NCBI GenBank assembly: GCA_028286645.1
Contig: JAQBRF010000004.1
Span: forward strand, 273,536 to 337,535
Direction of reading: 5' to 3'
Source of the DNA: Candidatus Nomurabacteria bacterium
GTDB lineage: Bacteria > Patescibacteriota > Minisyncoccia > Phycocordibacterales > UBA5272
Length of the DNA stretch: 64,000 bases
Part shown: piece after piece, positions 9,996 to 32,148 of the stretch
How the letters are laid out: every line of letters starts with the position of its first letter
Numbering within the stretch: the stretch's first letter is position 1
The notes under the pieces: generated by a model
The model's input: only the letters and a program-made list of their open reading frames with translations
Database searches by the model: none
Told to the model about the DNA's origin: nothing
Translations under genes and position numbers: made by a program

Positions 9996-10550
9996 ATGAA
10001 TTATGTACTCCTCACAATCGGCAAAACCCACACTGGTAAAAGTACTTTCGCAAAAGAGCTGTCAACAGAAGTGCCGAATGTTGTAATTATAGAAACCGAT
10101 CCAATCGCCTTATTTTTAAAAGCTAGCTTTTCTACTCTTCATGCGTTAGACGTGGATCATAAAGGAAGTTTTTCTTCACCGGCACTTAAATTTCTAGTAT
10201 TTCGTACCATTCTTGATTTCGCTCTAAATCAAAAGACGAATATTATTATGAGTAATTCTAATATGTATGAAAATGGCCGTCGTGATGTATTAAAAGTAAT
10301 TAAAAATCATGATGCAAAAACTATTGGCCTTTATTTCAATTACGAAGAAAAGATTATCATGGACAGGGTAAAAATTTCTAATCGAGATATTGACGTACTT
10401 AGTGTTTCGAAAAATTTCGAAGAGCTTATTATAAATCAGCGTGCACGATTCCAGTCTCCTAATAAAGATGAATTTGATTATTTTTTTGAAGTTACTCATC
10501 CGGAAGAGCTTTTAGATGTCAAAAAGAGAATTATAGAAATTTTAAAATAG
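9996..10550 (+). CDS. P-loop kinase-like protein (AAA_33/zeta-toxin-like fold)
   Basis: Walker A GKTHTGKST near the N-terminus. Size 184 aa. Confidence 0.45.
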   Translation: MNYVLLTIGKTHTGKSTFAKELSTEVPNVVIIETDPIALFLKASFSTLHALDVDHKGSFSSPALKFLVFRTILDFALNQKTNIIMSNSNMYENGRRDVLKVIKNHDAKTIGLYFNYEEKIIMDRVKISNRDIDVLSVSKNFEELIINQRARFQSPNKDEFDYFFEVTHPEELLDVKKRIIEILK

Positions 10551-11388: not shown

Positions 11389-11670
11389 CTACATCGTAAT
11401 CGTAGGATAAACATGTCCTGGATTTCTATTTTCTTCTTCAATTTCTAACAAACGAAAGCGCGGACGGCCATCAGTATGAACTCCAGTAAATCTTTCTATG
11501 GGTTGAGAATATAGCTGGCCATGATCATATAGAGCGCGATAAATAACGCGAAATTCATCTCCTTCTTTGTCAGCATCTTTTGCGATATCAATCACAAGAT
11601 ATTTATTACCGCGATAATGTTCGTAAACGCGATTTCTCTCTACTGAGGTTTCAAGTCTTTGGAATTTCAT
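11389..11670 (-). CDS. DUF1653 domain protein
   Basis: YEHYRGNKYLV...EFRVIYRALY is the hallmark YRHYKG..Y segment of DUF1653. Confidence 0.55.
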   Translation of the reverse strand: MKFQRLETSVERNRVYEHYRGNKYLVIDIAKDADKEGDEFRVIYRALYDHGQLYSQPIERFTGVHTDGRPRFRLLEIEEENRNPGHVYPTITM

Positions 11671-11710
11671 GTTTAAAGTATAGCAGTTAGGATTAGGTGA
11701 AATTAAGGAC

Positions 11711-12964: not shown

Positions 12965-13606
12965 TTACATCTCCGGCTCCATAATTTCCGAAAGTCTTTC
13001 CTCAGGAAAAACTCTAACAGAGACTTTTTTCTCTCCTTGAATATACGCCTTTATGAACCGATGAACACCGTCAAGGATAACCCACCTGCCTCTATAATAG
13101 ATTATATCGATCGGGAAACTCAAATCCGCCCGCATCATTCTATCCCACTCCTTTGTACTATTGGGGGCTTTATTAACAAGATCCTTCGCAGTTACAACAA
13201 ATTCTTTTCCATCATCGGACGTCCAATAAGGAATATCTAGATGCCATAGCAAATTCTCCGCATTCATTTCAGAAGTTGGCAATTCAATAGCCCAAATCTT
13301 TTTTTCATCCCAACTGCCCCGAGGATAACCTAATGACGCCCAATCTATATATGCCTCCCCGGCTTCTCTGGTTAAATTTGCATCGCGGTATATCTCTGCC
13401 AATTCAAGAGTTAAATCATATGTCATTCTTTCTGTATCTTCTCTAGATACATACGGCGCTTGAATCTGATTTTGCCTTGACTCAATATAGAAATTAAGAA
13501 GGGTTGGATCCGGTGGATCTTTAGAAAGAGATTCAATCACGGATTCTCTAGTGATCAATCTTTCAATATTTTCCCTATTATCTTCTTCGGGGGTAGGATC
13601 GGTCAT
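12965..13606 (-). CDS. hypothetical protein, possible ParB/Srx-like DGxHR motif
   Basis: WVILDGVHRFIKAY near the C-terminus. Otherwise unrecognised. Confidence 0.35.
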   Translation of the reverse strand: MTDPTPEEDNRENIERLITRESVIESLSKDPPDPTLLNFYIESRQNQIQAPYVSREDTERMTYDLTLELAEIYRDANLTREAGEAYIDWASLGYPRGSWDEKKIWAIELPTSEMNAENLLWHLDIPYWTSDDGKEFVVTAKDLVNKAPNSTKEWDRMMRADLSFPIDIIYYRGRWVILDGVHRFIKAYIQGEKKVSVRVFPEERLSEIMEPEM

Positions 13607-13812
13607 ATGGGAAGTATATCAGGTAGGATATGAAAGAAATTGGAACTCGGTTATATTTTCTTTATTCGGATTAAATTCTATAATCCACTCGATATCATAT
13701 TTATTTCTAAATATTTTAAGACACATCAGATAACTTGACTTTATAATAGCAGTGTGTTATACTATATAGGTACTCGTTCTGGCCAAATTTATTGTATCCC
13801 AAGGAGACCCTT

Positions 13813-14181
13813 ATGTCCCAACGCCGTATATTTGCAGTGGGTGACGGGGAAGTCATTCTCTCGGTACTCAGCATCACGAACGCTGGCGCCGCGGGTGAAG
13901 CCGTGGTGAAAGTCCGTGCGGAAGAAAAAAAAGAGGATGTCGCGATGCTTCTCACCTTCCAGGTGATGCTCGAAGCGACACCTCTCCGCCCCCTCGGCAT
14001 GCCGAGGGAGATCATGAAGAACAGGAAGACCAGAGCGGCTGCCGCTATCTTGAGCGCCGTCACGGTCGATGGTCCGGGATGCTTCTCGTTCAACGGTCTC
14101 GACTTTCTCAGGTGGGATTCGGACGGTGCGTGCTTTTACGTGCCCAGCCGGAACCACTGCGAAGCAACTCAGCTCCAATAG
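13813..14181 (+). CDS. hypothetical protein, GC-rich ORFan cassette C
   Basis: RBS AAGGAG lies 7 nt before ATG 13813, and an intrinsic terminator follows on the plus strand. Competing minus-strand ORFs lack these signals. Confidence 0.5.
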   Translation: MSQRRIFAVGDGEVILSVLSITNAGAAGEAVVKVRAEEKKEDVAMLLTFQVMLEATPLRPLGMPREIMKNRKTRAAAAILSAVTVDGPGCFSFNGLDFLRWDSDGACFYVPSRNHCEATQLQ

Positions 14182-14236: not shown

Positions 14237-14416
14237 TGAAAATTGGAACCAATCCTAGTCTCTAATAATTCTTATTCTCCTTGCCAAAAGAAAACTATAG
14301 AATTGGGACAATAATAATGACCGCTGTTACATTAGAGGGTTTTTGAGCAACCCACGTGAGAACATCTGGGCCGCATAGATATAACCCTGAGAGACCTGAT
14401 TGGTAGGGTAGAACTA

Positions 14417-14878
14417 TTACTTGTATATAGGTAAAATAGCTACTTCCTCCGGTATTTTGTATTCATTCCTAACCTCTTCAATAAATTCTAATTCTTTCTC
14501 GACTCTTTCAGGTCGGTTCCTCCTCATTATGTTTGCGATACACGCGGCAGGATTATTTTCAAAAAATCTATATTCAATACTAACTTCTATATTTAATTCT
14601 GAGATCAATTTTTTAATTCCCTGCTCTATTTCGTTTCTATATTCATCTTTACAAAATAGAATATCAGCAATAACTATACTTTTACCAACTAGTAACGCTT
14701 CTTTAATGTCTTCGTAATAAGCGCTTCCTTCACAGCTCAAAGATATTCTAGGGCGACTTGTTGCCGATCTATAGTAATCGTCGCATATTAAAGCGTTTCC
14801 AAATTCTTCTTTATGAGTTTCAAGATATGTAGTTTTACCAGAACCAGGCATGCCGACTATTATGATGATCTTTTGCAT
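14417..14878 (-). CDS. P-loop NTPase/kinase-like protein, paralogue 1 of a duplicated pair
   Basis: Walker A GMPGSGKTT. About 85% aa identity to the 18547..19011 product. Confidence 0.6.
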   Translation of the reverse strand: MQKIIIIVGMPGSGKTTYLETHKEEFGNALICDDYYRSATSRPRISLSCEGSAYYEDIKEALLVGKSIVIADILFCKDEYRNEIEQGIKKLISELNIEVSIEYRFFENNPAACIANIMRRNRPERVEKELEFIEEVRNEYKIPEEVAILPIYK

Positions 14879-15754: not shown

Positions 15755-15775
15755 ATGGTGGAACGATGTTGGAAC
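15755..15775. repeat. 20-bp direct repeat (ATGGTGGAACGATGTTGGAAC), left boundary of the GST-HxlR module
   Basis: Near-identical copy at 16980..16999. Confidence 0.55.
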
Positions 15776-17004: not shown

Positions 17005-17505
17005 TTAAGTGCTAATTATCTTAAATATCTCTTCTGGAGGAAGATTTGCGTCTATCATTTTAATACCTAGACCTCTAGCTTCTTCCTCAATCTCCGTAGC
17101 CCAATTTAAGGCATTCTGCAGCTGGTAGTCTGTTTTACCCATCGGATTTTCTCTACTTTCATGTCTTAGACGTTCAGCAAGAACTTCTTGTTCTGCGTTC
17201 AGAAAAAATACCTTATCAAATAAATCAACCATATCAAAAGCATTTCCCGCCATTCCAAAAAGGTACACATCATTATTTTTCTTTAAAAAAACTTTTAGGA
17301 ATTCTCTGCTCCAAAGAAATTCATGAGTATCTAAGAATTCTTTTCCAGCACCTATGGGAAATTCAACTTCATTGCCCTTACTATCAAAATATCCCGCAAG
17401 ACCGGGAATAGTATCAGCATCAAATGCATTGATGTTTTTTCTTCTCAAATAAAATGAAGTATATGTTTTACCAGAACCAGATGGGCCTAGTATTAAAATT
17501 TTCAT
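17005..17505 (-). CDS. P-loop kinase-like protein
   Basis: Walker A GPSGSGKTY at the N-terminus. 166 aa. Confidence 0.5.
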   Translation of the reverse strand: MKILILGPSGSGKTYTSFYLRRKNINAFDADTIPGLAGYFDSKGNEVEFPIGAGKEFLDTHEFLWSREFLKVFLKKNNDVYLFGMAGNAFDMVDLFDKVFFLNAEQEVLAERLRHESRENPMGKTDYQLQNALNWATEIEEEARGLGIKMIDANLPPEEIFKIIST

Positions 17506-18133: not shown

Positions 18134-18499
18134 TTATCGCGGAAATAATTGCGCGAGGATGCCTATTGCTATTCCAACGCCAAGAATTCCCCCGATCAAT
18201 GTGGCTCTTTTTACGATAGAAACTTTTCGAATATGCAAGAAATATGCGATTACGAGAAGCAGCAGAAAATACGCACTATCCAAAAGATACCAATCAACTA
18301 CTTGGAGCAATGCTTTGGTTGTATGACTCAAACTAGGATTATTGAGAATATGATTCTGTAGCCAAAAATGGACAGCGTCCGTTGGATTGGGTGATAGCGT
18401 CCCCAAGAATCCACCAAGTAGAAAGATTCCAACAGGAGTCTTCAAAAACTTTTCTTCCTTCTCTAGATTCCATCCATGGAAGAAATGTTTAATTGCCAT
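18134..18499 (-). CDS. small membrane protein
   Basis: Three predicted TM helices. Confidence 0.35.
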   Translation of the reverse strand: MAIKHFFHGWNLEKEEKFLKTPVGIFLLGGFLGTLSPNPTDAVHFWLQNHILNNPSLSHTTKALLQVVDWYLLDSAYFLLLLVIAYFLHIRKVSIVKRATLIGGILGVGIAIGILAQLFPR

Positions 18500-18546
18500 G
18501 ATGTAAGTAAGTATAGCAGGTGGGATTAAGAAGGTGGACAGAATGA

Positions 18547-19011
18547 TTATTGCTTGTATATAGGCAAAATGACAGAACCCTCTGGTATTTTATATCCACC
18601 CCTAACCTCTTCAATAAATTCTAACTCTTTCGCAACTCTTTCCGGGCGATTACGCCTTATTATGTTTGCGATGCATGCAGTAGAATTATTTTCAAAAAAT
18701 CTATATTCCATACTAGCGTCTATTTTTAATTCTGAAACCAATTTTTTTACACCCTCCTTTATTTCATTTCTATATTCATCTTTACAAAATAGAATATCAG
18801 CAATAACTATATCTTTACCCAATGCTAGCGCTTCTTTAATATCTTGATAATAAGCGCTTCCTTCGCAGCTTAAAGATACTCTGGGACGACTAGTTGCTGA
18901 TCTGTAATAATCGTCGCATATTAAAGCGTTTCCAAATTCTTCTTTATGAGTTTCAAGATATGTAGTTTTCCCGGAACCAGGCATACCAACTATTATGGTG
19001 ATCTTTTGCAT
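18547..19011 (-). CDS. P-loop NTPase/kinase-like protein, paralogue 2 of a duplicated pair
   Basis: Walker A GMPGSGKTT. About 85% aa identity to the 14417..14878 product. Confidence 0.6.
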   Translation of the reverse strand: MQKITIIVGMPGSGKTTYLETHKEEFGNALICDDYYRSATSRPRVSLSCEGSAYYQDIKEALALGKDIVIADILFCKDEYRNEIKEGVKKLVSELKIDASMEYRFFENNSTACIANIIRRNRPERVAKELEFIEEVRGGYKIPEGSVILPIYKQ

Positions 19012-19084: not shown

Positions 19085-19942
19085 TCATTTATTTTCTTTT
19101 AATTTAATTTCTCCTGAAACAAGAATAGAGTTTATAAATAATACAAGTATATGAACATAGCTCACAGCTTCGTATAAGGTAGTATAGTTTATCTTTTCAG
19201 GCTTATGGATATCATAATTTCTTATTATTCTTGAATTGTTGAGTGCCCATACCACCTCTTGGTTCATATTATATTTTTTATAAATAGATTCTGTCTCATA
19301 GATTCTTTTTATTTTTGCCCCAATGTTTTTGATAGCAGAAATCTCTGCTATTAACGAACAAATTAATTCCGTTGTGGTAACAGCGGAGGCTAATATATCT
19401 TTTATATTTCTCTTTTCGTAAGAATTTTGTATATTTTCTAGTCCTATATAAATACTCTGAGTTTCTTCGGTATTAAATTGATTTAATAATACTTTTGGAA
19501 TAATTCTTTCTGATTCCTCGTAGTTATTAATTATATTTTCTGCCACCTGAAATGCGACTAAAATAGGCGTCATCCTGGTTCTGTCGACCTGCTTTTGTGT
19601 CAATCTATTAGAATCAGTTACCAAATAACCTCCACTGTAGGTGCTCCAACTGAAAGGTCCTATACCTGTATCATATTCATATTTTTCTTCTTCGTCTATC
19701 CCATGGCCACTTATTTCCATGTAAAATCTTTTTTTGTCACCGCGTTCTTTGCGATATTCTAATTTTGAAAGAAAATAATCAATTATATTCTGCGACATTT
19801 TGATGTCAGTAAAATAGACAATACACTGGGCGATCCAATTTCTAATTTGATCACCAGTAAGAGTGTTGTCTGTTTCAATAAACCCGAGCAACTGCTTGTG
19901 TGTCTTTCTCCACTTTTCAATTTTTAGCAAATTTTCTTCCAT
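19085..19942 (-). CDS. hypothetical 285-aa partner protein of the PHP-ABC ATPase, translationally coupled
   Basis: Its ATG at 19940-19942 lies 2 nt after the TAA stop of the upstream gene. No recognisable motifs. Confidence 0.5.
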   Translation of the reverse strand: MEENLLKIEKWRKTHKQLLGFIETDNTLTGDQIRNWIAQCIVYFTDIKMSQNIIDYFLSKLEYRKERGDKKRFYMEISGHGIDEEEKYEYDTGIGPFSWSTYSGGYLVTDSNRLTQKQVDRTRMTPILVAFQVAENIINNYEESERIIPKVLLNQFNTEETQSIYIGLENIQNSYEKRNIKDILASAVTTTELICSLIAEISAIKNIGAKIKRIYETESIYKKYNMNQEVVWALNNSRIIRNYDIHKPEKINYTTLYEAVSYVHILVLFINSILVSGEIKLKENK

Positions 19943-19944
19943 AC

Positions 19945-22710
19945 TTAGGAAATATTCAGTTTTTTCATTCTTTTTTGAAGAGCAAGATCTCCACCTTCAA
20001 GAATTTCTACAATTTCTTTATTTATATATTTATCTTCAATAGCTCCTGAAATATATTTAAAATCAGGTTTAAATTTACCCTTTTTACTTGAAACTAAAAT
20101 TTCTTCACTATCACTACAAACAACCAGATTTGCGTTGTGAGAGACGACAATAATTTGGCGTTTTGTTTTTTCTGTCTTAATAAAATCAACTATGGTGGTA
20201 GATATAGCTCTTGAATCTAAATCATCCTCCGGTTGATCAAGAAAAACAGGATAGTTAAAATCGTCAAATTTAAAAATAAATTCTAATAGAGCAATCATCT
20301 GCTCTCCATCTGACATTTCTGAAAACTTAATACCTTTTTTACTCTTAATACTTTCAAGAAAATCAATCTTGTACCTATTTTTAAATAAATCCAATAAGAC
20401 GGACGTTATATCTTTTCCAGATTTTAATAATAAATTACCTGAAAGAATCCCGCCTAGTAACTCTTTTATAAGAATTGAAAAAGTTGCTTTTGTATAAATA
20501 GCGCTAGCCGGATCATTTAAAAATATGTTTGCATTCACATAAATCTTATCTTCATCTTTTCTGAAAACTGTTGAGTTATGGTAGTTTATATTGTCATCAA
20601 TAACTTTTTTAAACTGCTCAATATCAAACGATACAATGAGTTTTATTTGAGAAAAGTTAAGCTCTCCTAAATCGATCTTAAGATTGTTATACTCAGTTTC
20701 ATATTTAAAGTAAACATCAATAAGTTCTTTCTTTTTTAGATTATATGAAGCTCTTATTGCAACTAACTCCTTTTCAATATCTTCTATTTGCTTCCTACTG
20801 TTCTTACTCTTCTCGAGTAATTTTGTAAGTTCAAGAAGAGTTTTACTTTCATTTAACTTATCTTGTAATGGTTTTAATAGCTTTTCTAAAGCTTTTATAT
20901 CTTTATCAATTTGTATACCCATCTTTTTTAAAGATAGAATTTCTTCATCAACAAACTCTACCTTGAAAGCCTCATTCGAGGCTGAAAGTTTCTCTTCAAT
21001 TTTTTCTAAAGTTTGAGGAGAAAAAGCAAGTTCAAAGACCCTATCTGAATTAATAACTTCATCTTTTTTAAGATCTTCATAGGCTTTTATATCTTGCAAT
21101 ATAACCTTTGCGGTCTTTTCTTTTTGAAGCTTCTCAGTATTAATTAGCTCATGCTCTTTAATTTCGACTGGTGTTATAGATGAAGTTTTTCCACACTTTT
21201 TTATTTTTTCTTCAATTTCTTTTATATCTTTATCAAAGTCTTCTTTTTTCCCTATTTTTTTAAGTAGTTCTCTTTTTTCAAAACCTGTAGATCTTGCGGC
21301 TAACACTTCACGTATAAGGGAAGTTAATAAAAGGATATTCAACCCCTCAAATTTTTTATAGCTTTCTATGGCTGTACGAAAATCATCTCTATTTTCAAAT
21401 AAATTAGTTAAGAAGTTATCAAACCGAGGATCTGTCTCGTACACAAGCTCACCTAAATATTTTTGAGGTATAAAAAGTATACTTTTTTCTTTAGTTTCAG
21501 ATGCGTTTAGACTGTTAAATGTTCCATCTGTCCAAATAACTTTTAAGTCCGTTAAAGGGAAAAAGTCTTTTAATTCAACATTTCTTAATTTGCATTGAGA
21601 TGGATCAATGGAATAAGCAATATTTTTTAATAGATTTGATTTTCCTTGCGCGCGACTACCTATTATTGCATTTAAGTTTTGATTGAAATAAACTACTTCA
21701 GCAAATCCATCGCTAGAAGTATATTCAACTCTATCTATAAGTGTATATGTAGACTTTTCTTCTGGTTTTAATTCTTGAATTTTAACTCTATCGGAACATT
21801 CATACATTATTTGCTTCAACCCTTCGAAAGTTGGATCAGATTTGATCCAAGTCGCTTTATTTGAGGGATATTTGCCATAATTTGTAAATTTATGAGCATC
21901 ACTACCAGCCACACAAGGTTTCGCCGTATTTCCTAAAGTTTTAAAGAAGTTTGCAAAGTAAGTCCTATTTTTATCAGTTTCTATGCCATTAAATAGATCT
22001 ATATTTCTTTGATCTCTGCTCTCGAAGAGGTGAGCCGTTTGCATAAAATAATTATCATCATGTGGATGTTTACTCCAATCTAAATTTAATAAACCATCAG
22101 ATGTATCGTAGGGTAATAAAATAAAACCTGATCCTTTTGGAATTTGCTCAAATGCTGTTGTTAGTGATTCTCTTGTAATAATTGCTGTCTTGCTTCCAAG
22201 TTCAAGAAGTTGTTTATCGTCTAACGTAGAAGGATCTCCATAGCTATGAGCTTTAGCTTTAGATACATCTAAAGATCTTGCACACTCAATAAGAGCATCA
22301 TTAGATAATTTTTTAGTTTCTGCACCAACTCTAAGCTTTAGTTCTGATTTAAAATCAGAAAGCTGTTGAGTTGTTAATTTATCAGAAAGTATTACATGTA
22401 TATTTAATCGGTATTCAGTCGGAGATTCTACACGTAACTCCATTCCAGGTAACACAGTTTTAGTAAGTTCAGAAGAATGCGAATGAAGGTATTTTTTTAA
22501 TTCTAGCATCCAATCAAAAGTCCAATAATCTTGAATAGCAAAGACAGAAACTTCTGATGTATTTACTACCTCTATAAATTTTTTTATAGCAACTTCTTTT
22601 TCTGATGGTGTCATCTCCGCTAACTTCTTACCTCCTTCCCAAAAAAAAGAAGCCGGGGTATGCACATGCAAATCCCACTGTCGCCACTCAGATCCTTTTG
22701 GAAAAGTCAT
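19945..22710 (-). CDS. PHP-domain phosphoesterase fused to an OLD/SbcC-like ABC ATPase with a long coiled-coil insert
   Basis: N-terminal WDLHVHTPAS...GSDAHKF are PHP His/Asp ligands (aa ~10-300). ATPase motifs: Walker A IIGSRAQGKSNLL (aa ~350), signature-like SEMSDGEQ, Walker B VFLDQPEDDLD (DEPE-type as in OLD/AAA_21) and H-loop IIVVSHNANL. About 330 aa of K/E-rich coiled coil lie between the ATPase lobes. Confidence 0.75.
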   Translation of the reverse strand: MTFPKGSEWRQWDLHVHTPASFFWEGGKKLAEMTPSEKEVAIKKFIEVVNTSEVSVFAIQDYWTFDWMLELKKYLHSHSSELTKTVLPGMELRVESPTEYRLNIHVILSDKLTTQQLSDFKSELKLRVGAETKKLSNDALIECARSLDVSKAKAHSYGDPSTLDDKQLLELGSKTAIITRESLTTAFEQIPKGSGFILLPYDTSDGLLNLDWSKHPHDDNYFMQTAHLFESRDQRNIDLFNGIETDKNRTYFANFFKTLGNTAKPCVAGSDAHKFTNYGKYPSNKATWIKSDPTFEGLKQIMYECSDRVKIQELKPEEKSTYTLIDRVEYTSSDGFAEVVYFNQNLNAIIGSRAQGKSNLLKNIAYSIDPSQCKLRNVELKDFFPLTDLKVIWTDGTFNSLNASETKEKSILFIPQKYLGELVYETDPRFDNFLTNLFENRDDFRTAIESYKKFEGLNILLLTSLIREVLAARSTGFEKRELLKKIGKKEDFDKDIKEIEEKIKKCGKTSSITPVEIKEHELINTEKLQKEKTAKVILQDIKAYEDLKKDEVINSDRVFELAFSPQTLEKIEEKLSASNEAFKVEFVDEEILSLKKMGIQIDKDIKALEKLLKPLQDKLNESKTLLELTKLLEKSKNSRKQIEDIEKELVAIRASYNLKKKELIDVYFKYETEYNNLKIDLGELNFSQIKLIVSFDIEQFKKVIDDNINYHNSTVFRKDEDKIYVNANIFLNDPASAIYTKATFSILIKELLGGILSGNLLLKSGKDITSVLLDLFKNRYKIDFLESIKSKKGIKFSEMSDGEQMIALLEFIFKFDDFNYPVFLDQPEDDLDSRAISTTIVDFIKTEKTKRQIIVVSHNANLVVCSDSEEILVSSKKGKFKPDFKYISGAIEDKYINKEIVEILEGGDLALQKRMKKLNIS

Positions 22711-23998: not shown

Positions 23999-24041
23999 AA
24001 ATCATAGAAAGGCTGTGCCTATCCTTTTAAAAATTGTGTTG

Positions 24042-24112
24042 CTGGGGAACAGGGACTCGAACCCCAATACCATCCTCCAGAGGGATGTGTCCTACCATTA
24101 GACGATTCCCCA
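24042..24112 (-). tRNA. tRNA-Gln (anticodon CUG)
   Basis: 71-nt cloverleaf on the minus strand: TGGGGAA/TTCCCCA acceptor, GGTAGGAC D-arm, CATCC-CTCTGGA-GGATG anticodon arm (CTG), TTCGAGT T-loop. Confidence 0.75.
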
Positions 24113-24116
24113 ATGT
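24096..24116. repeat. 21-bp direct repeat CATTAGACGATTCCCCAATGT, copy 1 (covers the tRNA-Gln 5' end)
   Basis: Exact second copy at 24352..24372. Confidence 0.6.
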
Positions 24117-24351: not shown

Positions 24352-24372
24352 CATTAGACGATTCCCCAATGT
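24352..24372. repeat. 21-bp direct repeat CATTAGACGATTCCCCAATGT, copy 2 (att-like)
   Basis: Exact match to 24096..24116. The 235-bp spacer has no ORF but a perfect hairpin GTTAGGAATTT-tggta-AAATTCCTAAC. Confidence 0.6.
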
Positions 24373-24535: not shown

Positions 24536-25477
24536 ATGAAACAAAAACAACGAGACGCTCTTGGGATTCTTTTAGTCATTATTGCCGTAGGTGCGCTTAT
24601 TTATCATATGTTTATGATGAGGGGTAATAATTCTATGAATATGACTGGAAGGATGGAAAACACAGTTACATTTAACTGCTCGCAAGGAAAAAGCATTATG
24701 GCGACTTTTTATCCTGAAAACGACACCGAAGTACACGTGATGCTTAGTGACGGACGCATGCTTTTACTCCCTCATGCGATGTCCGGGTCTGGCGCTAGAT
24801 ATGCAAATACAGATGAATCAATTGTTTTTTGGAACAAAGGAAATACGGCTTTCATCACTGAAGGAACATCCACGACTTATGAAAACTGCGTAACTCCTAC
24901 CTCTTCAAATGATGCCGGCGCCACTTCTGCTGATAAGTCACATGTTTATACAAATTCTACATATGGATTTTCACTTACAGTCCCAGTAGGAGTGACACAG
25001 CAAGATTACTTCAGTAACTTTTATATCTTAAATAATACATGGAGAGTAAACTCATCTCCTGAGAATAAAGGCAATGCTGTGGTTTCTTTTGTTATAAAAA
25101 GAATAGATCAAGGTGGGATAGCTACTGGAAAGCCTTATCCCCTATTTTTTGATGCAGAAGTAAGAGTAGGAGTAAGCACAGACACGAAACAATGTTATCT
25201 GCCCGATCCAGGATATGAAAGTGAGCCTGTAACTAATGTAGTAATAAACGGAATTACATTTAAGAAGTTTAGTTTTTCTGATGCAGCTACGATGAAATAT
25301 GTTTCTGGTGAAAGTTACAGAACTATACATAACAATAAATGTTACGCGATTGAACAGTTAAAAGAAGGATCAAGTTATAGAGACGACACTATGACCCAAG
25401 GAACACCAGACACAGAACTTGATACTTACTATAATCAAGGAGAACAGATTATAAAGACTTTAAAGTTTATCGATTAA
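24536..25477 (+). CDS. membrane-anchored MliC-like (C-type lysozyme inhibitor) domain protein with a C-terminal extension
   Basis: TM helix, then FNCSQGK...FYPEND...SGSGARYAN...WNKGNTAF...YENC. The SGxGAxY motif and Cys pair are typical of MliC. Confidence 0.6.
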   Translation: MKQKQRDALGILLVIIAVGALIYHMFMMRGNNSMNMTGRMENTVTFNCSQGKSIMATFYPENDTEVHVMLSDGRMLLLPHAMSGSGARYANTDESIVFWNKGNTAFITEGTSTTYENCVTPTSSNDAGATSADKSHVYTNSTYGFSLTVPVGVTQQDYFSNFYILNNTWRVNSSPENKGNAVVSFVIKRIDQGGIATGKPYPLFFDAEVRVGVSTDTKQCYLPDPGYESEPVTNVVINGITFKKFSFSDAATMKYVSGESYRTIHNNKCYAIEQLKEGSSYRDDTMTQGTPDTELDTYYNQGEQIIKTLKFID

Positions 25478-27289: not shown

Positions 27290-30208
27290 TTAGTTTCCGT
27301 ATGTCGCCTTTATCATTGCCCGTGACATTGCTCCGAAGTATCCAGTATTTGGAAGCTTCATTGCCTTTTGCCACTTAGCAACTGCTGCGCGAGTCAATCC
27401 TCCGAAGTATCCTGTAGGTGCATCGAGCTTTAGATATCCTCCTGTTATTAAGAATGCTTGAAGATTCGTAACTTCAATTCCTCTTGATCCTAGCATCATG
27501 TTCTTTGTGAAAGAATAAGTTGTGCTTGCTGATACTGGAATTGTAATAGTCATATTAGGAGTTGATGTAGCCCCCGTACTTAAAGTAGTAGTAGCTGCTC
27601 CTAAAACTTGTCCTTGTGGTGTTCCAACTGATCCAGTTGAAAATCCAGATGACGATCCTCCTCCACCGCCGCCACTGCTTACTGATGACCCGCCCCCCCC
27701 TCCGCCTCCGCTAGAAAATGCGACCTGTGTGTAAGCGACGAATGTTGTTAGATGTCTTGTCCAAACGATTAAGTCTGATCCAGAACTTGTTCTACAATCT
27801 TCATCAGCTGCGAGTGTAGGAGTTGAAGTTGAAGTACATGTCGCATTGATATCAGTAATTACTCCGCCACGTGACCAAGCTACTTTAGATCCTGAAAGTC
27901 CAGCGAAAGTAAGCTTTAATGGAATGTCTAAACTTAATGCATTACCAGCTAAACCTAATTCAACTGCTGCTTGAATGGTAAGAATTGTGTTAGGGAAAGC
28001 ATTTATTGTAAACCCAGTAGTTGTCGCTGTAGGGAATGTAAATGTTCCATCCCATGAAGATGTACCGGTAATTGTAGTTCCTATTGCTAATTCCATGGTT
28101 ACTGCTACATTTGTTCCGTTATTATTTGCAATAGCAGATGAACTTGTTGACGTAGTTGTTGTAATGGATGATGTGGTTGTTCCATTGTTATATCGGATAG
28201 CAATCATATCTTTCGTTGTGTACCATGGAGAAAAAGTTACTTCATCGTAAACAGACGCCCCATTTCCACGTGGATTTTTTGTGGTATTTGTGGGCCCTGA
28301 AATATTTCCCCACCAGTTTCTAGCTGCGTTAATCGACGCGTTTGTAATGGGTCCGCCATTTCCATCATCGGAAGCAACCCCTTCAGTTATGTTAGATCCA
28401 AATATATTGTTGGTAATAGTTGCAGAAACTGTTCCTTTTTCTAAGGCAATAGCTTGATTTAAGTCGTGGAAATTATTGCTAGTAATAGTAGTCGATGAAT
28501 TATCTGTGGTTGCATAATATGATCCTAATACTATTCCTGTGTCTGAAGCATATATTTCATTGTCGTGAATATTTGCAGTTGAATCCCCGGATCCTCCGAA
28601 TGAGCTTATAAAGATTGCAGGAGAAGCCCAGGTAGGAGTTGCTCCTGTAGTAAGAGCATTATGAAGAGTGTTACCATAAATTTCTACGTCTGATCCTCCC
28701 CATAGATTAACTAGATTCTGAACACGACTTGTGCCGTCTACGTTATCTCCTAAAACATCATTTGAATATATCTTTCCAGATGAATTGATGAATCTGATTC
28801 CTCTTTTATCGAATGAAGAGATATTATTATCATGAATAAGTGCATAGCTTCCTCCTATTGTCGTTGAATCTACCTCAACATCATTAGAAGCTGGATTCCA
28901 AATATTCTTTACTGTAAGATTCTTTAATTCTACAGGTGACCCTGAAGTTCCTGAATCATTTACTAAGACACCATAGTCAAATGAATTTGCTCCCTCAGCA
29001 CTACCTCCTCCATTAATATATAGATTGTTTAAGGTTACTCCCTTCGTTCCATTAATCTCTATTATGTAATTTTTGGAATTGTTTCCAGTAATTATAGTAG
29101 AAGTTCCTGCTCCAGTAATAAGAAGAGGTTTATTTATTAACAAACTCTCATTGTATGTTCCTGCTCCAACTTTAACTACATCACTTGATGACGCGTTTTC
29201 GATTGACCAGTCCAAGTTTGAACTTATACTTCGCACATTTGAATATGCACCATAGCTATAATCACGCAATGTGAAAGTTGATTCATCAGAAAGACTTACT
29301 ACGGAAGCGGCAAAGGTATTTGTATCCCAATATGACTTCCAGTCAAATTGTGTATTATCATATCCTCCGCGAGCACGAATATTCCACTTATTTGCTTCTG
29401 TAAATGTGTTTCCTGTAATGACTGCTCCGCCTACTGGGTAAACATACCAAGGCTGTCCTCCGTTACCACTAAAACTGATTCGCCCGTAATCATTGTTTGT
29501 CCCTGTAAATACATTGTTAGTAATATTACGATCTGTAACTGGTGTAGATGATCCAGCGCCACTAGCTAGGCTAATAGTTGCACCATCAGCGAAGATATTA
29601 TTCGTAATTGTGTACTTATTTACTAGTGAATTTGGAGTAAAATCACTTATGTATAATGCAGCTCCGGCAGGATCTGTATCGATAAGTTTAGAATTCTTTA
29701 GGGTAAAGTTATCAGCAATAACTTCAATCGTCTTATTTAGACCAGAGGCATTATTGCCAAAAGTAAATCCAGACAAAGTAATTCCGTCTGCGGCAACAAA
29801 AACTCCGCTAGGACCAAAAGAGTTTGTGGCATTTGTGGTTATCGTCGCTTGTATATCGTTTGGATTAGAAATTACATTTCCTGAAGCATCAACGCCTTGC
29901 ACCGTTACATTTGATGTTCCGAAGAAAAGTCCAAATTGGTATGAGGCACCGTCAACTGTTCGGTTAGATGCAGTTTCGTCGTATGCTCCTGGATAAACAT
30001 TAACTACGTCTCCGGAAATTGCTGCGTCTATTCCTTCTTGAATTGTTGCGAAAGCTGTTAATTGAGAAGTTCCATCATGTACACTTCCAGCAACTGCTTT
30101 ATCAACATATATTGTTGATGCTGAAACTGAAATCGCCCCCACAAACATACTCATTGCAAATAGAACACCTGCTCCGAGACCTAACGCACCCTTTTTATTA
30201 AAAATCAT
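27290..30208 (-). CDS. secreted right-handed beta-helix (pectate-lyase-like) repeat protein with a Gly-rich linker and C-terminal peptidoglycan-binding domain
   Basis: Signal peptide. Many PbH1-like repeats (NNIFADGATISL, IHDNNISS..GIRFINSSG, ITNNIFGSN). GGGGGGGSSVSSGGGGGGSSSG linker. C-terminal LQAFLITGGYLK...TGYFGGLTRAAVAKWQ resembles PG_binding_1. Confidence 0.7.
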   Translation of the reverse strand: MIFNKKGALGLGAGVLFAMSMFVGAISVSASTIYVDKAVAGSVHDGTSQLTAFATIQEGIDAAISGDVVNVYPGAYDETASNRTVDGASYQFGLFFGTSNVTVQGVDASGNVISNPNDIQATITTNATNSFGPSGVFVAADGITLSGFTFGNNASGLNKTIEVIADNFTLKNSKLIDTDPAGAALYISDFTPNSLVNKYTITNNIFADGATISLASGAGSSTPVTDRNITNNVFTGTNNDYGRISFSGNGGQPWYVYPVGGAVITGNTFTEANKWNIRARGGYDNTQFDWKSYWDTNTFAASVVSLSDESTFTLRDYSYGAYSNVRSISSNLDWSIENASSSDVVKVGAGTYNESLLINKPLLITGAGTSTIITGNNSKNYIIEINGTKGVTLNNLYINGGGSAEGANSFDYGVLVNDSGTSGSPVELKNLTVKNIWNPASNDVEVDSTTIGGSYALIHDNNISSFDKRGIRFINSSGKIYSNDVLGDNVDGTSRVQNLVNLWGGSDVEIYGNTLHNALTTGATPTWASPAIFISSFGGSGDSTANIHDNEIYASDTGIVLGSYYATTDNSSTTITSNNFHDLNQAIALEKGTVSATITNNIFGSNITEGVASDDGNGGPITNASINAARNWWGNISGPTNTTKNPRGNGASVYDEVTFSPWYTTKDMIAIRYNNGTTTSSITTTTSTSSSAIANNNGTNVAVTMELAIGTTITGTSSWDGTFTFPTATTTGFTINAFPNTILTIQAAVELGLAGNALSLDIPLKLTFAGLSGSKVAWSRGGVITDINATCTSTSTPTLAADEDCRTSSGSDLIVWTRHLTTFVAYTQVAFSSGGGGGGGSSVSSGGGGGGSSSGFSTGSVGTPQGQVLGAATTTLSTGATSTPNMTITIPVSASTTYSFTKNMMLGSRGIEVTNLQAFLITGGYLKLDAPTGYFGGLTRAAVAKWQKAMKLPNTGYFGAMSRAMIKATYGN

Positions 30209-30453: not shown

Positions 30454-32148
30454 TTATCTACTCTTTAATGATGCCCTTACCAATCTAATATCTTGATATG
30501 AATACTTTCCTTTAAAGAATTCATACACTGGCGTCAGTTTATCCGTTTCTAATTCTTTAAATGCTTTTTTGATTTTAGTAACATCTTTTTTATCAGGCAA
30601 GATTTTATCAAATGGAATTTTATCTCCGCTTTCTATCAGCTTTTCTATATGTCCTATAATTGTGTCGGTTGATAACTTTCTGCTTTCTCCAATTTCTTTT
30701 ATGGTGAGGCCCTCTTTAATCATCTCTTCTGTTTTAGTGTGTGATGGAATTTTTTCCTGAAGCTCTTCTGCCTCTTCCTCATCAAGCTCCTTTAATGAGC
30801 CGCCATGATTTGTTAAGAATTTATTTTGCATTTCTTCTAGATCAACTTTGCTATATTTTTCTATTGCAGTTTCAGCTTGATCGCTTTTGCTTTGGAAGGT
30901 CTTGTCTGCTTCTCGCACTTCCTCGGCCACCATTAAGGCATTCGGATTAAATCCTTTTAAATAAAGCCCTTTTAAGCCTTTTAAACGAGAAAGTGCCACA
31001 TATCCTTGGCCTGACGCAAACGAGCGACTAAGGTCAATTTCTGCCCTATCAAGGGTCATACCTTGTGACTTATGCACGGTGATAGCCCATGCTAATTTAA
31101 GAGGTATTTGGCTGATCTCTGCCCTTACTTTGCCATCTTCTTCTATTCGCCAAGTGTCCGCATTCACCGTTATTTTCTTTCCCGATACCAACTCCACAAT
31201 GGGAGCGTTATCGTTGTCGAATCCAACTACAGTTCCCATGGAACCATTTACGTATTTTTTATCCGGACTATTTTTTAAACAGATTACTTTTGCTCCGATT
31301 TTTAATTCTAAATTTTCTTCTGCGAGACAGCTATTCTTTAATGATTCAACGACATTTGCTTTCCCTTTAGTCGTCATTGTATATGAGCGGGAATCTCCTT
31401 TAATCTTTTTATATTCTATTTGATTTATTTGATCAACATTTTCATTATGAGTATAAAGTTTAATATGATCTCCTTTATGGCTCTCATTTGCTTCTCGCAA
31501 AAGCTCATAATGCTCTTCATCAATCTCCCCGCTTCTGATTGCATTTAATAAGTCGGACAATTTATCATCAACCTGCCTCCATTGTTCTGTTAAATAGCAG
31601 ACGACCGGCTTAGCCTCTTTCCAGGCGCGCGAGGAAAAAGCAAATACGCTTGGCGGGATACCATCTTCGTATATTTCTTCGACTTGCCTGCCTCCTCTTG
31701 GTGTAAACCTCACCACTGGCGGAAGCTGGAAAAAGTCTCCAGTAAAAACCACCTGTATACCACCGAAGGGACTTTCATTTCTTCTTAAGTGCTTCGCAGC
31801 GCGATCCAGCATATCTACGAAGTTCGCATGAAGCATAGAGACTTCATCGATTATTAAAACTTGGGTTTCATTCCATCTTTTATAAATATTCTGCTTTTCT
31901 TCCATCGCATCTAAATCATACGCATGAAGCTTGTCTTTAATTCCGATCCCGCTCCAAGAATGAATCGTGACGCCGCTTATATGAGTTGATGCGATTCCAG
32001 TAGATGCAGTCACCGCATAGCGCACACCATGACTCCTCAAATATGAAATATATTCTCGAAGTACATATGACTTTCCAGATCCAGCGGCACCAGTGAGAAA
32101 TGTAGTGTGGCCTAATTTAAGAATATTAAGAGCAACAGATTGAGTCAT
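30454..32148 (-). CDS. PIF1/RecD-family ATP-dependent DNA helicase with a C-terminal HTH-like tail
   Basis: Walker A GAAGSGKS, Walker B LIIDEVSM, motif FTGDFFQLPPV, C-terminal VHKSQG (UvrD_C_2-like). Confidence 0.75.
   Translation of the reverse strand: MTQSVALNILKLGHTTFLTGAAGSGKSYVLREYISYLRSHGVRYAVTASTGIASTHISGVTIHSWSGIGIKDKLHAYDLDAMEEKQNIYKRWNETQVLIIDEVSMLHANFVDMLDRAAKHLRRNESPFGGIQVVFTGDFFQLPPVVRFTPRGGRQVEEIYEDGIPPSVFAFSSRAWKEAKPVVCYLTEQWRQVDDKLSDLLNAIRSGEIDEEHYELLREANESHKGDHIKLYTHNENVDQINQIEYKKIKGDSRSYTMTTKGKANVVESLKNSCLAEENLELKIGAKVICLKNSPDKKYVNGSMGTVVGFDNDNAPIVELVSGKKITVNADTWRIEEDGKVRAEISQIPLKLAWAITVHKSQGMTLDRAEIDLSRSFASGQGYVALSRLKGLKGLYLKGFNPNALMVAEEVREADKTFQSKSDQAETAIEKYSKVDLEEMQNKFLTNHGGSLKELDEEEAEELQEKIPSHTKTEEMIKEGLTIKEIGESRKLSTDTIIGHIEKLIESGDKIPFDKILPDKKDVTKIKKAFKELETDKLTPVYEFFKGKYSYQDIRLVRASLKSR

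Follow-up and report, generated by a model that had tools for sequence, protein, structure and literature searches.

A TrlF-family PHP-ABC ATPase gene and a predicted HEPN-domain gene lie side by side in a Candidatus Nomurabacteria genome

Do two adjacent genes separated by only two nucleotides, and whose products both resemble components of bacterial defence, make up one system or two? The question is raised by a pair of genes on a 514-kb contig of a metagenome-assembled genome (MAG) of Candidatus Nomurabacteria (Patescibacteria, or Candidate Phyla Radiation, CPR), both products of which are annotated as 'hypothetical protein' at NCBI. The stretch analysed, called the window below, is 64,000 nucleotides of contig JAQBRF010000004.1 (positions 273,536 to 337,535), and coordinates are those of the window. 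The larger gene (19945..22710, minus strand; MDB5260492.1) encodes a protein of 921 amino acids, and the smaller one (19085..19942, minus strand; MDB5260491.1) a protein of 285 amino acids. An earlier note, made by a model from the sequence alone, had described them as a translationally coupled two-gene system for defence or repair, with an architecture that it could not name and a partner without any recognisable domain. The analysis reported here leads to a different reading. By its profile match the 921-residue protein is a member of a named family, TrlF, and the 285-residue protein is very probably a HEPN-domain protein, as judged from its modelled fold and a sequence motif. With a probability of about 0.62, the two are separate, adjacent genes of defence type in a variable part of a CPR genome where the GC content is low, and the two-gene unit is not a conserved system.

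TrlF family membership

The 921-residue protein matches the NCBIfam profile NF045780 ('TrlF family AAA-like ATPase') with 445.6 bits (E-value 5.7e-133), where the curated cutoff is 350 bits, and the match runs from residue 5 to residue 918 and over positions 1-943 of the 944 in the profile. On this profile evidence it is a full-length member of the family. The layout of a PHP domain, an ABC (ATP-binding cassette) ATPase and a coiled coil is common to the family and to the window protein, and the invariant motifs are the same as those of 58 relatives. Because of this membership, and because Ppl, a characterised anti-phage protein discussed below, has the same architecture, the combination of PHP and ABC domains is not an unnamed one, as had been supposed. 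At E-values of 1e-5 or below, the homologues number more than 1,731 and come from CPR bacteria, Bacteroidota, Proteobacteria, Firmicutes, Actinobacteria and archaea; the name TrlF is already attached to several of them. A genome scan recovered at least 582 TrlF loci. All 10 diverse relatives that were tested score as TrlF (495-704 bits). Phage records held just one near-full-length relative, in Microcystis phage Mwe-JY31 (29% identity). The window protein is clustered at 90% under a 51-residue fragment that serves as representative, which is why it is missing as a 100% match in the homologue search; this is a database artefact and no sign of a pseudogene.

The family takes its name from the temperature-restriction locus (TRL) trlR-trlF-trlG of Photorhabdus laumondii (bioRxiv 10.1101/2020.06.02.129163; PMC7554251), in which trlF is annotated as a histidinol phosphatase (bioRxiv 10.1101/2020.06.02.129163) and trlR encodes a 79-residue regulator (bioRxiv 10.1101/2020.06.02.129163; PMC7554251). 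The presence of the TRL operon halts growth at 36 °C, and the arrest maps to trlG, which encodes a protein with SLFN_AlbA_2 and HATPase_c_4 domains (bioRxiv 10.1101/2020.06.02.129163). A literature search for PHP-ABC ATPases among ABC classifications and conflict systems gave no matches.

Domain organization and conserved motifs

The 921-residue protein has four major parts: (i) a PHP domain, of the metal-dependent phosphoesterase or nuclease type, at residues ~1-320 (21751..22710, minus strand); (ii) the N-terminal lobe of an ABC ATPase at ~325-440; (iii) an antiparallel coiled coil at ~442-675 (20686..21387, minus strand); and (iv) the C-terminal ABC lobe at ~687-921. The PHP assignment draws on the Foldseek matches described below and on the residues H15 and H17 of an HxH motif (HVH, 15-17), E91, H104 and D271-x-H273 (within SDAH, 270-273). 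The ABC set is complete, with a Walker A motif (GSRAQGKS, 351-358), a Q-loop, a signature (SDGE, 800-803), a Walker B motif (DQPED, 825-829), a D-loop and an H-loop (SHN, 857-859). Conservation was judged on two alignments of homologues, of 14 and 58 sequences. Across the 58, H17, E91, D271, H273, G356-K357-S358, Q416, G802, D825-Q-P-E-D829, D832 and H858 are invariant and H15 is nearly so; S800 is invariant in the set of 14. All of the PHP and ABC motifs that the earlier note had read from the sequence are thus confirmed as present.

AlphaFold modelling from the alignment of 58 sequences gave a structure with a mean predicted local distance difference test (pLDDT) score of 87.8. Its N-terminal domain is alpha/beta, and Foldseek matches this domain to the PHP domain of RNase AM (7ug9, E-value 8.6e-6, TMt 0.58), BAD_1165 and Pol III alpha. 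The ATPase together with the coiled coil matches the heads of SMC, MukB, JetC, Rad50, RecN, AriA and LmuB in the Protein Data Bank (PDB). No PHP-ABC fusion was among the Foldseek PDB matches, and a search of PDB sequences for a solved relative of TrlF or Ppl returned only generic P-loops of SMC, PtuA and retron ATPases. At the level of sequence profiles, the Pfam PHP family PF02811 matches several homologues (P0025, P0026, P0041 and P0058); the window protein has no PHP match in Pfam, where PHP_C appears faintly below threshold. Further sub-threshold scores are 31.3 bits for SMC_N (cutoff 40) and 23.8 bits for AAA_21 (cutoff 27) in Pfam and 26.6 bits for AriA in PADLOC, and PHROGs gives a weak SbcC-like match (E-value 5e-4). 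The fold matches and these Pfam and PADLOC scores agree with the earlier description of a PHP domain joined to an ABC/SMC-like ATPase with an OLD/AAA_21-like Walker B motif. No Toprim match was obtained from Pfam, and no CxxC zinc hook occurs anywhere in the 921 residues. The coiled coil is shorter than had been thought. In the model, helices defined by DSSP cover residues 442-486, 489-507, 514-548 and 579-675, which gives a length of ~235 residues rather than ~330; the segment is indeed rich in lysine, glutamate and leucine (17.5% K and 14.5% E).

Throughout the TrlF family, an invariant glutamine directly follows the Walker B aspartate (D825-Q826-P-E828), at the place where the DEPE motif of OLD/AAA_21 ABC ATPases has its catalytic glutamate. 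Engineered glutamate-to-glutamine mutants of SMC and Rad50 bind ATP and barely hydrolyse it. The DQPED motif resembles a natural version of this 'EQ' state, which would suggest that the TrlF head binds or senses nucleotides more than it hydrolyses them rapidly.

A predicted HEPN-domain protein

Sequence searches with the 285-residue protein gave no match in Pfam, NCBIfam, PADLOC or PHROGs and no match among PDB sequences, and of 63 relatives only one weakly matches Pfam Abi_2 (E-value 7.8e-4). Since an assignment at the sequence level failed, it is the fold and a short motif that identify this protein. In the model (pLDDT 84.1), an alpha/beta domain makes up the N-terminal part (~1-110), and the C-terminal part (~120-280) is a helical bundle like that of HEPN proteins. 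Its fold matches include the HEPN domain of Roquin (score 9.7), 4nqf (9.0), AbiA (8.8), Csm6 (8.3), the HEPN domain of sacsin (8.1), HepT (7.8) and LsoA (6.6), and the top three Foldseek matches are HEPN proteins as well, at scores that are not significant (E-value 0.56, TMt 0.65). An exhaustive profile search of 1.84 billion proteins recovered 88 representatives of the family. Among 63 members, R241 is present in every one, N242 in 62, and a histidine at +5 or +6 in all; in the window protein this motif reads R241-N-Y-D-I-H246 and corresponds to the Rx4-6H signature of HEPN domains. Fold and motif together make a HEPN domain very probable, in place of the featureless partner of the earlier description. 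The few members that carry an organism name all come from Patescibacteria.

The family is so far undescribed, and Pfam, NCBIfam, PADLOC and PHROGs all lack a profile for it. HEPN proteins of the Abi and toxin type include Abi_2 (AbiD-AbiF), AbiA, HepT, Csm6 and RnlA/LsoA. The 285-residue protein matches no described HEPN profile, and it differs from these toxins in having a distinct N-terminal alpha/beta domain and in that no MNT-type antitoxin adjoins it. Probably it acts on its own, separately from TrlF, as an Abi-like toxin or putative RNase that would be gated by its N-terminal domain.

Conservation of the gene pair

The stop codon of the TrlF gene (TAA) is followed by the two nucleotides gt (19943..19944, minus strand) and then by the ATG of the HEPN gene, as first described. 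This spacing makes co-transcription of the two genes likely. Scans of the locus for promoters and terminators gave counts equal to those in shuffled sequence and are uninformative. Probable co-transcription does not make the pair a conserved system, however, and the two-gene system of the earlier note finds no counterpart in other genomes, where its own suggested check of co-occurrence was run. In all six other genomic contexts of HEPN-family homologues (38-64% identity), TrlF is absent. A search for TrlF in 10 loci with HEPN homologues found none, and a profile made from 63 members of the HEPN family had no match in 87 TrlF loci. The pair was met in this genome alone; the one further copy, in an independent Logan assembly, is identical to the window locus over 5,131 nucleotides.

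The HEPN homologues have neighbours of their own. In the six contexts these are ClpB and NUDIX genes; a T5orf172 gene; a methyltransferase; Mrr, NOV_C and DUF2726 genes with a resolvase; a diversity-generating retroelement with a GIY-YIG nuclease and an N6/N4 methyltransferase; and a Trypsin_2 gene. In MAGs of Candidatus Pacebacteria (L088-L090; 1739-3182, 8001-8849), the HEPN homologue lies ~5 kb from the retroelement, which comprises bAvd and a reverse transcriptase, and a serine recombinase is found in the same patch as the GIY-YIG and methyltransferase genes. The homologue beside Mrr, NOV_C and DUF2726 is at another locus (L087).

TrlF genes, for their part, mostly lack a tightly coupled neighbour. 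An open reading frame on the same strand and within 30 nucleotides downstream was seen at ~12 of 80 genome loci, and what is coupled varies: TrlG-like genes (SLFN_AlbA_2 with HATPase_c_4) at just 2 of ~80 TrlF loci (L036 and L080), Fic with a winged helix-turn-helix gene (L057), DUF2130 (L021 and L039) and subunits of restriction-modification systems. Among relatives on usable contigs, the four closest (59, 54, 53 and 53% identity) each have a different gene downstream: one for a Zn-ribbon-like protein of 377 residues, one for a DUF2779/Cas4-like protein, one for a protein of 140 residues and one for a membrane protein of 269 residues. No remote similarity was found among these downstream genes, and with the HEPN gene of the window they make five unrelated ones. 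The variable or missing coupled neighbours fit a TrlF protein that works alone, as Ppl does.

The wider contexts of the TrlF relatives contain MmeI-type restriction-modification enzymes, ResIII helicases, T5orf172, type I hsdS and hsdR, CfrBI, resolvases and conjugation genes, and ResIII helicases, HsdS, CfrBI and N6_Mtase are among the neighbours found upstream of TrlF. For instance, TrlF lies between hsdS and hsdR in a Fluviicola sp. MAG (L062, 6607-13700), with overlaps of 1-4 nucleotides; it directly follows a ResIII-type helicase at three loci (L009, L010 and L028); and at another (L093) it directly follows a T5orf172 gene, which itself comes after a ResIII helicase and an MmeI-type enzyme. 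The restriction-modification operons and mobile elements in which TrlF relatives are found support an association of the family with defence. A defence role, one of the two that the earlier note had considered, is plausible for TrlF.

Comparison with Ppl and a possible mode of action

Ppl is reportedly a single-gene anti-phage system of Escherichia coli, said to have been described by Millman and co-workers in 2022. Like the TrlF protein of the window, Ppl joins a PHP nuclease and an NTPase in a single polypeptide. The window protein scores 102.5 bits against the NCBIfam Ppl profile (NF042955), whose equivalog cutoff is 1000, and 92.6 bits against that of PADLOC (PDLC02208), each in two stretches, the better of which covers the C-terminal ~130 residues in the ATPase lobe. 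As far as these scores tell, it belongs to a different family of the same superfamily and is a distant homologue of Ppl. According to PMC12904381, Ppl is a 3'-5' exonuclease for single-stranded DNA that is kept off by nucleoside triphosphates (NTPs) bound to the PHP and NTPase domains, and that is switched on by nucleotide depletion together with 3'-OH DNA ends from phage homing endonucleases. This mechanism goes back to the work of Xu et al. (Mol Cell 2026;86:180), as cited in PMC13434339; see also PMC11482910.

By analogy with Ppl, TrlF would most likely act alone, as a homo-oligomer. Its ABC heads, and possibly its PHP site, may bind NTPs and thereby keep the PHP exonuclease off. Infection would then lower the NTP pools and yield free DNA 3' ends, which would release the exonuclease and lead to degradation of DNA. 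The invariant DQPED motif would be more in keeping with such a sensor of nucleotides than with a head that hydrolyses them fast. Given how weak the similarity to Ppl is, the transfer of its mechanism to TrlF is an extrapolation.

Alternative explanations

Several observations weigh against two separate genes of defence type. The gap of two nucleotides, the common strand and the low GC content shared by both genes are what a functional operon looks like, and at a minority of loci a nuclease-like partner of the Cas4 kind is tightly coupled to TrlF. Around the locus there is no integrase, and no further gene that could be recognised as one of defence or mobility lies within ~5 kb. At 102 bits the match to Ppl falls far short of the 1000-bit cutoff, and it is best in the C-terminal lobe of the ATPase; the sole genetics on a TrlF gene, in the Photorhabdus TRL, gave no phenotype attributable to trlF (bioRxiv 10.1101/2020.06.02.129163).

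The first of these observations lead to the best-surviving alternative, that of a genuine two-component module in which TrlF would be a sensor or motor responding to DNA ends and NTP level, and the HEPN protein its RNase effector or else a regulator of TrlF. The TrlF genes with a coupled partner elsewhere speak for such an arrangement, as PD-(D/E)XK genes lie downstream of TrlF with gaps of -1, 2 and 15 nucleotides, and a DUF2779 gene overlaps TrlF by 1 nucleotide. A coupled Cas4-like gene, PD-(D/E)XK or DUF2779, is present at L028, L054, L061 and L093, the first three being of the PD-(D/E)XK/Cas4-like kind. The trlF-trlG operon of Photorhabdus also behaves as a unit, with its phenotype on trlG. 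This alternative owes its remaining weight to the close spacing of the two genes and to the Cas4-like partners that recur elsewhere, but it is unlikely. The TrlF-HEPN pair was seen in this genome and its identical copy only, the sampled contexts of each gene elsewhere lack the other, and most TrlF genes are uncoupled. Short intergenic gaps also occur elsewhere in this genome (12959/12965, 25474-25477 and 33358/33370). The GC content of the two genes is 0.305 and 0.314, and they differ at third codon positions (0.20 against 0.29).

A broader version of the same idea treats TrlF as a constant core of sensor and nuclease that recruits interchangeable coupled effectors, namely Cas4-like PD-(D/E)XK nucleases, TrlG/Schlafen-AlbA_2 proteins, Fic proteins and the HEPN RNase family, which is apparently restricted to CPR bacteria; the window would then hold the first TrlF-HEPN two-component system. 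It is because a minority of TrlF genes have coupled nuclease-like partners that the HEPN protein may be considered as a further effector, and we regard both the modular core and its list of effectors as doubtful. If such a core did exist, the invariant DQ, as a natural glutamate-to-glutamine state, would point to an ATPase head that senses the nucleotide level and is not a motor.

The reading as two separate defence-type genes has also to be set against roles outside of defence. TrlF could be a housekeeping or accessory DNA-repair enzyme that acts on DNA ends or hairpins in the reduced genome of a CPR bacterium, an analogue of SbcCD in which PHP replaces Mre11 in cis. The architecture invites this comparison, as SbcCD/Mre11-Rad50 likewise couples a nuclease to an ABC head that an antiparallel coiled coil divides in two; the ATPase head and coiled coil fold like those of Rad50, SMC and RecN; PHROGs gave its weak SbcC-like match; and one close TrlF homologue adjoins a Y-family polymerase and an SRAP gene. 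On the other hand, SbcCD uses a calcineurin-type nuclease subunit and a zinc hook, whereas the window protein has neither, its PHP domain being fused in cis at the N-terminus, and no Mre11/SbcD-like gene was found among the neighbours of the TrlF gene. The analogy drawn in the earlier note holds for the architecture and fails for the hook and the partner. The family is spread patchily across phyla, in variable contexts rich in restriction-modification and mobile-element genes; the local GC content is low; there is no synteny among relatives at 53-59% identity; and Ppl, the closest relative to have been characterised, acts against phage. A role in repair is thus very improbable.

The weakest alternative is a growth-restricting or toxin-like locus like that of Photorhabdus, with arrest under stress such as temperature and no role against phage; it is suggested by the origin of the family name in an operon that stops growth at 36 °C, and is hardly credible since that phenotype maps to trlG, trlG and trlR are both missing from the window locus (a HEPN gene follows TrlF instead, and the host is a CPR bacterium), and the TRL phenotype could just as well come from a defence system that activates itself under stress.

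Relation to other ABC ATPase systems

The Spaf_1101 AAA-like ATPase family (NF045781) is homologous to the window protein in its ATPase and coiled coil (118 bits over residues 496-917, below the cutoff of 475), and the PHP part lies outside the match. Wadjet JetC, Lamassu LmuB, PARIS AriA and Gabija GajA/OLD likewise have an ABC head with a coiled coil, and the D-x-P-E Walker B motif of the window protein is like that of AAA_21/OLD. OLD, GajA, JetD and AriB employ a Toprim nuclease (Cap4-type elsewhere), whereas TrlF uses PHP instead and has glutamine rather than glutamate after the Walker B aspartate.

Genomic surroundings

The stretch from 19 to 23.8 kb has a GC content of 0.29-0.31, compared with 0.376 for the whole window. 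The gene upstream of TrlF is of the LPG_synthase_C family, and the genes around the locus are small and accessory: AAA_33/AAA_18 kinases and HAD, GST, RibD_C, LPG_synthase_C, MliC and CAP genes. Four small P-loop kinase-like genes (AAA_33/AAA_18) occur within 9 kb, at 9996-10550, 14417-14878, 17005-17505 and 18547-19011. The duplication of kinase genes that had been noticed before is real, with 83% DNA identity between 14415-14714 and 18548-18847, and these genes are a locally expanding family of paralogues. Further along the window, at 27290-30208 and 30454-32148, a 972-residue beta-helix protein that carries a peptidoglycan-binding domain at its C-terminus adjoins a PIF1-family helicase fused to HTH_40.

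The suggestion that att-like repeats bracket the locus was rejected. An exact direct repeat of 21 nucleotides is present at 24096-24116 and 24352-24372, 256 nucleotides apart; its first copy overlaps the 5' end of a tRNA-Gln gene (24041-24112, minus strand) and its second lies outside the gene. This repeat, the only one tied to the tRNA-Gln, copies the tRNA 5' end and is found on the side away from the locus. A slipped-strand switch in the TrlF gene was likewise rejected. The run of eight T on the gene strand (A8 on the plus strand) at 22641..22648 does exist, where it encodes S21-F22-F23-W24, but it is at the level expected by chance: the window holds six A/T runs of eight where ~9 are expected, ~1.0 is expected in the TrlF gene from composition, and the homologous codons in three relatives have no homopolymer run.

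Two repeated motifs occur between genes in this part of the window. One, of ~20-28 nucleotides, is found at 11676-11695, 13612-13631 and 18509-18536 (also 14109-14128) and reads approximately TAATCC..CTGCTATACTT on the gene strand. It sits 6-10 nucleotides before the starts of three small minus-strand genes at 11389-11670, 12965-13606 and 18134-18499. Its TATACT resembles a -10 box close to the ATG, which would suggest transcripts with short leaders or none. The second, GTGGAACGATGTTGGAAC, is found at 15758, 16982 and 18079.

Implications

The value of the finding lies in annotation: of two entries called 'hypothetical protein' in a genome of Candidatus Nomurabacteria, one becomes a TrlF-family PHP-ABC ATPase and the other, very probably, a HEPN-domain protein. 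Few genes of defence type have been catalogued in CPR bacteria, and both genes add to them.

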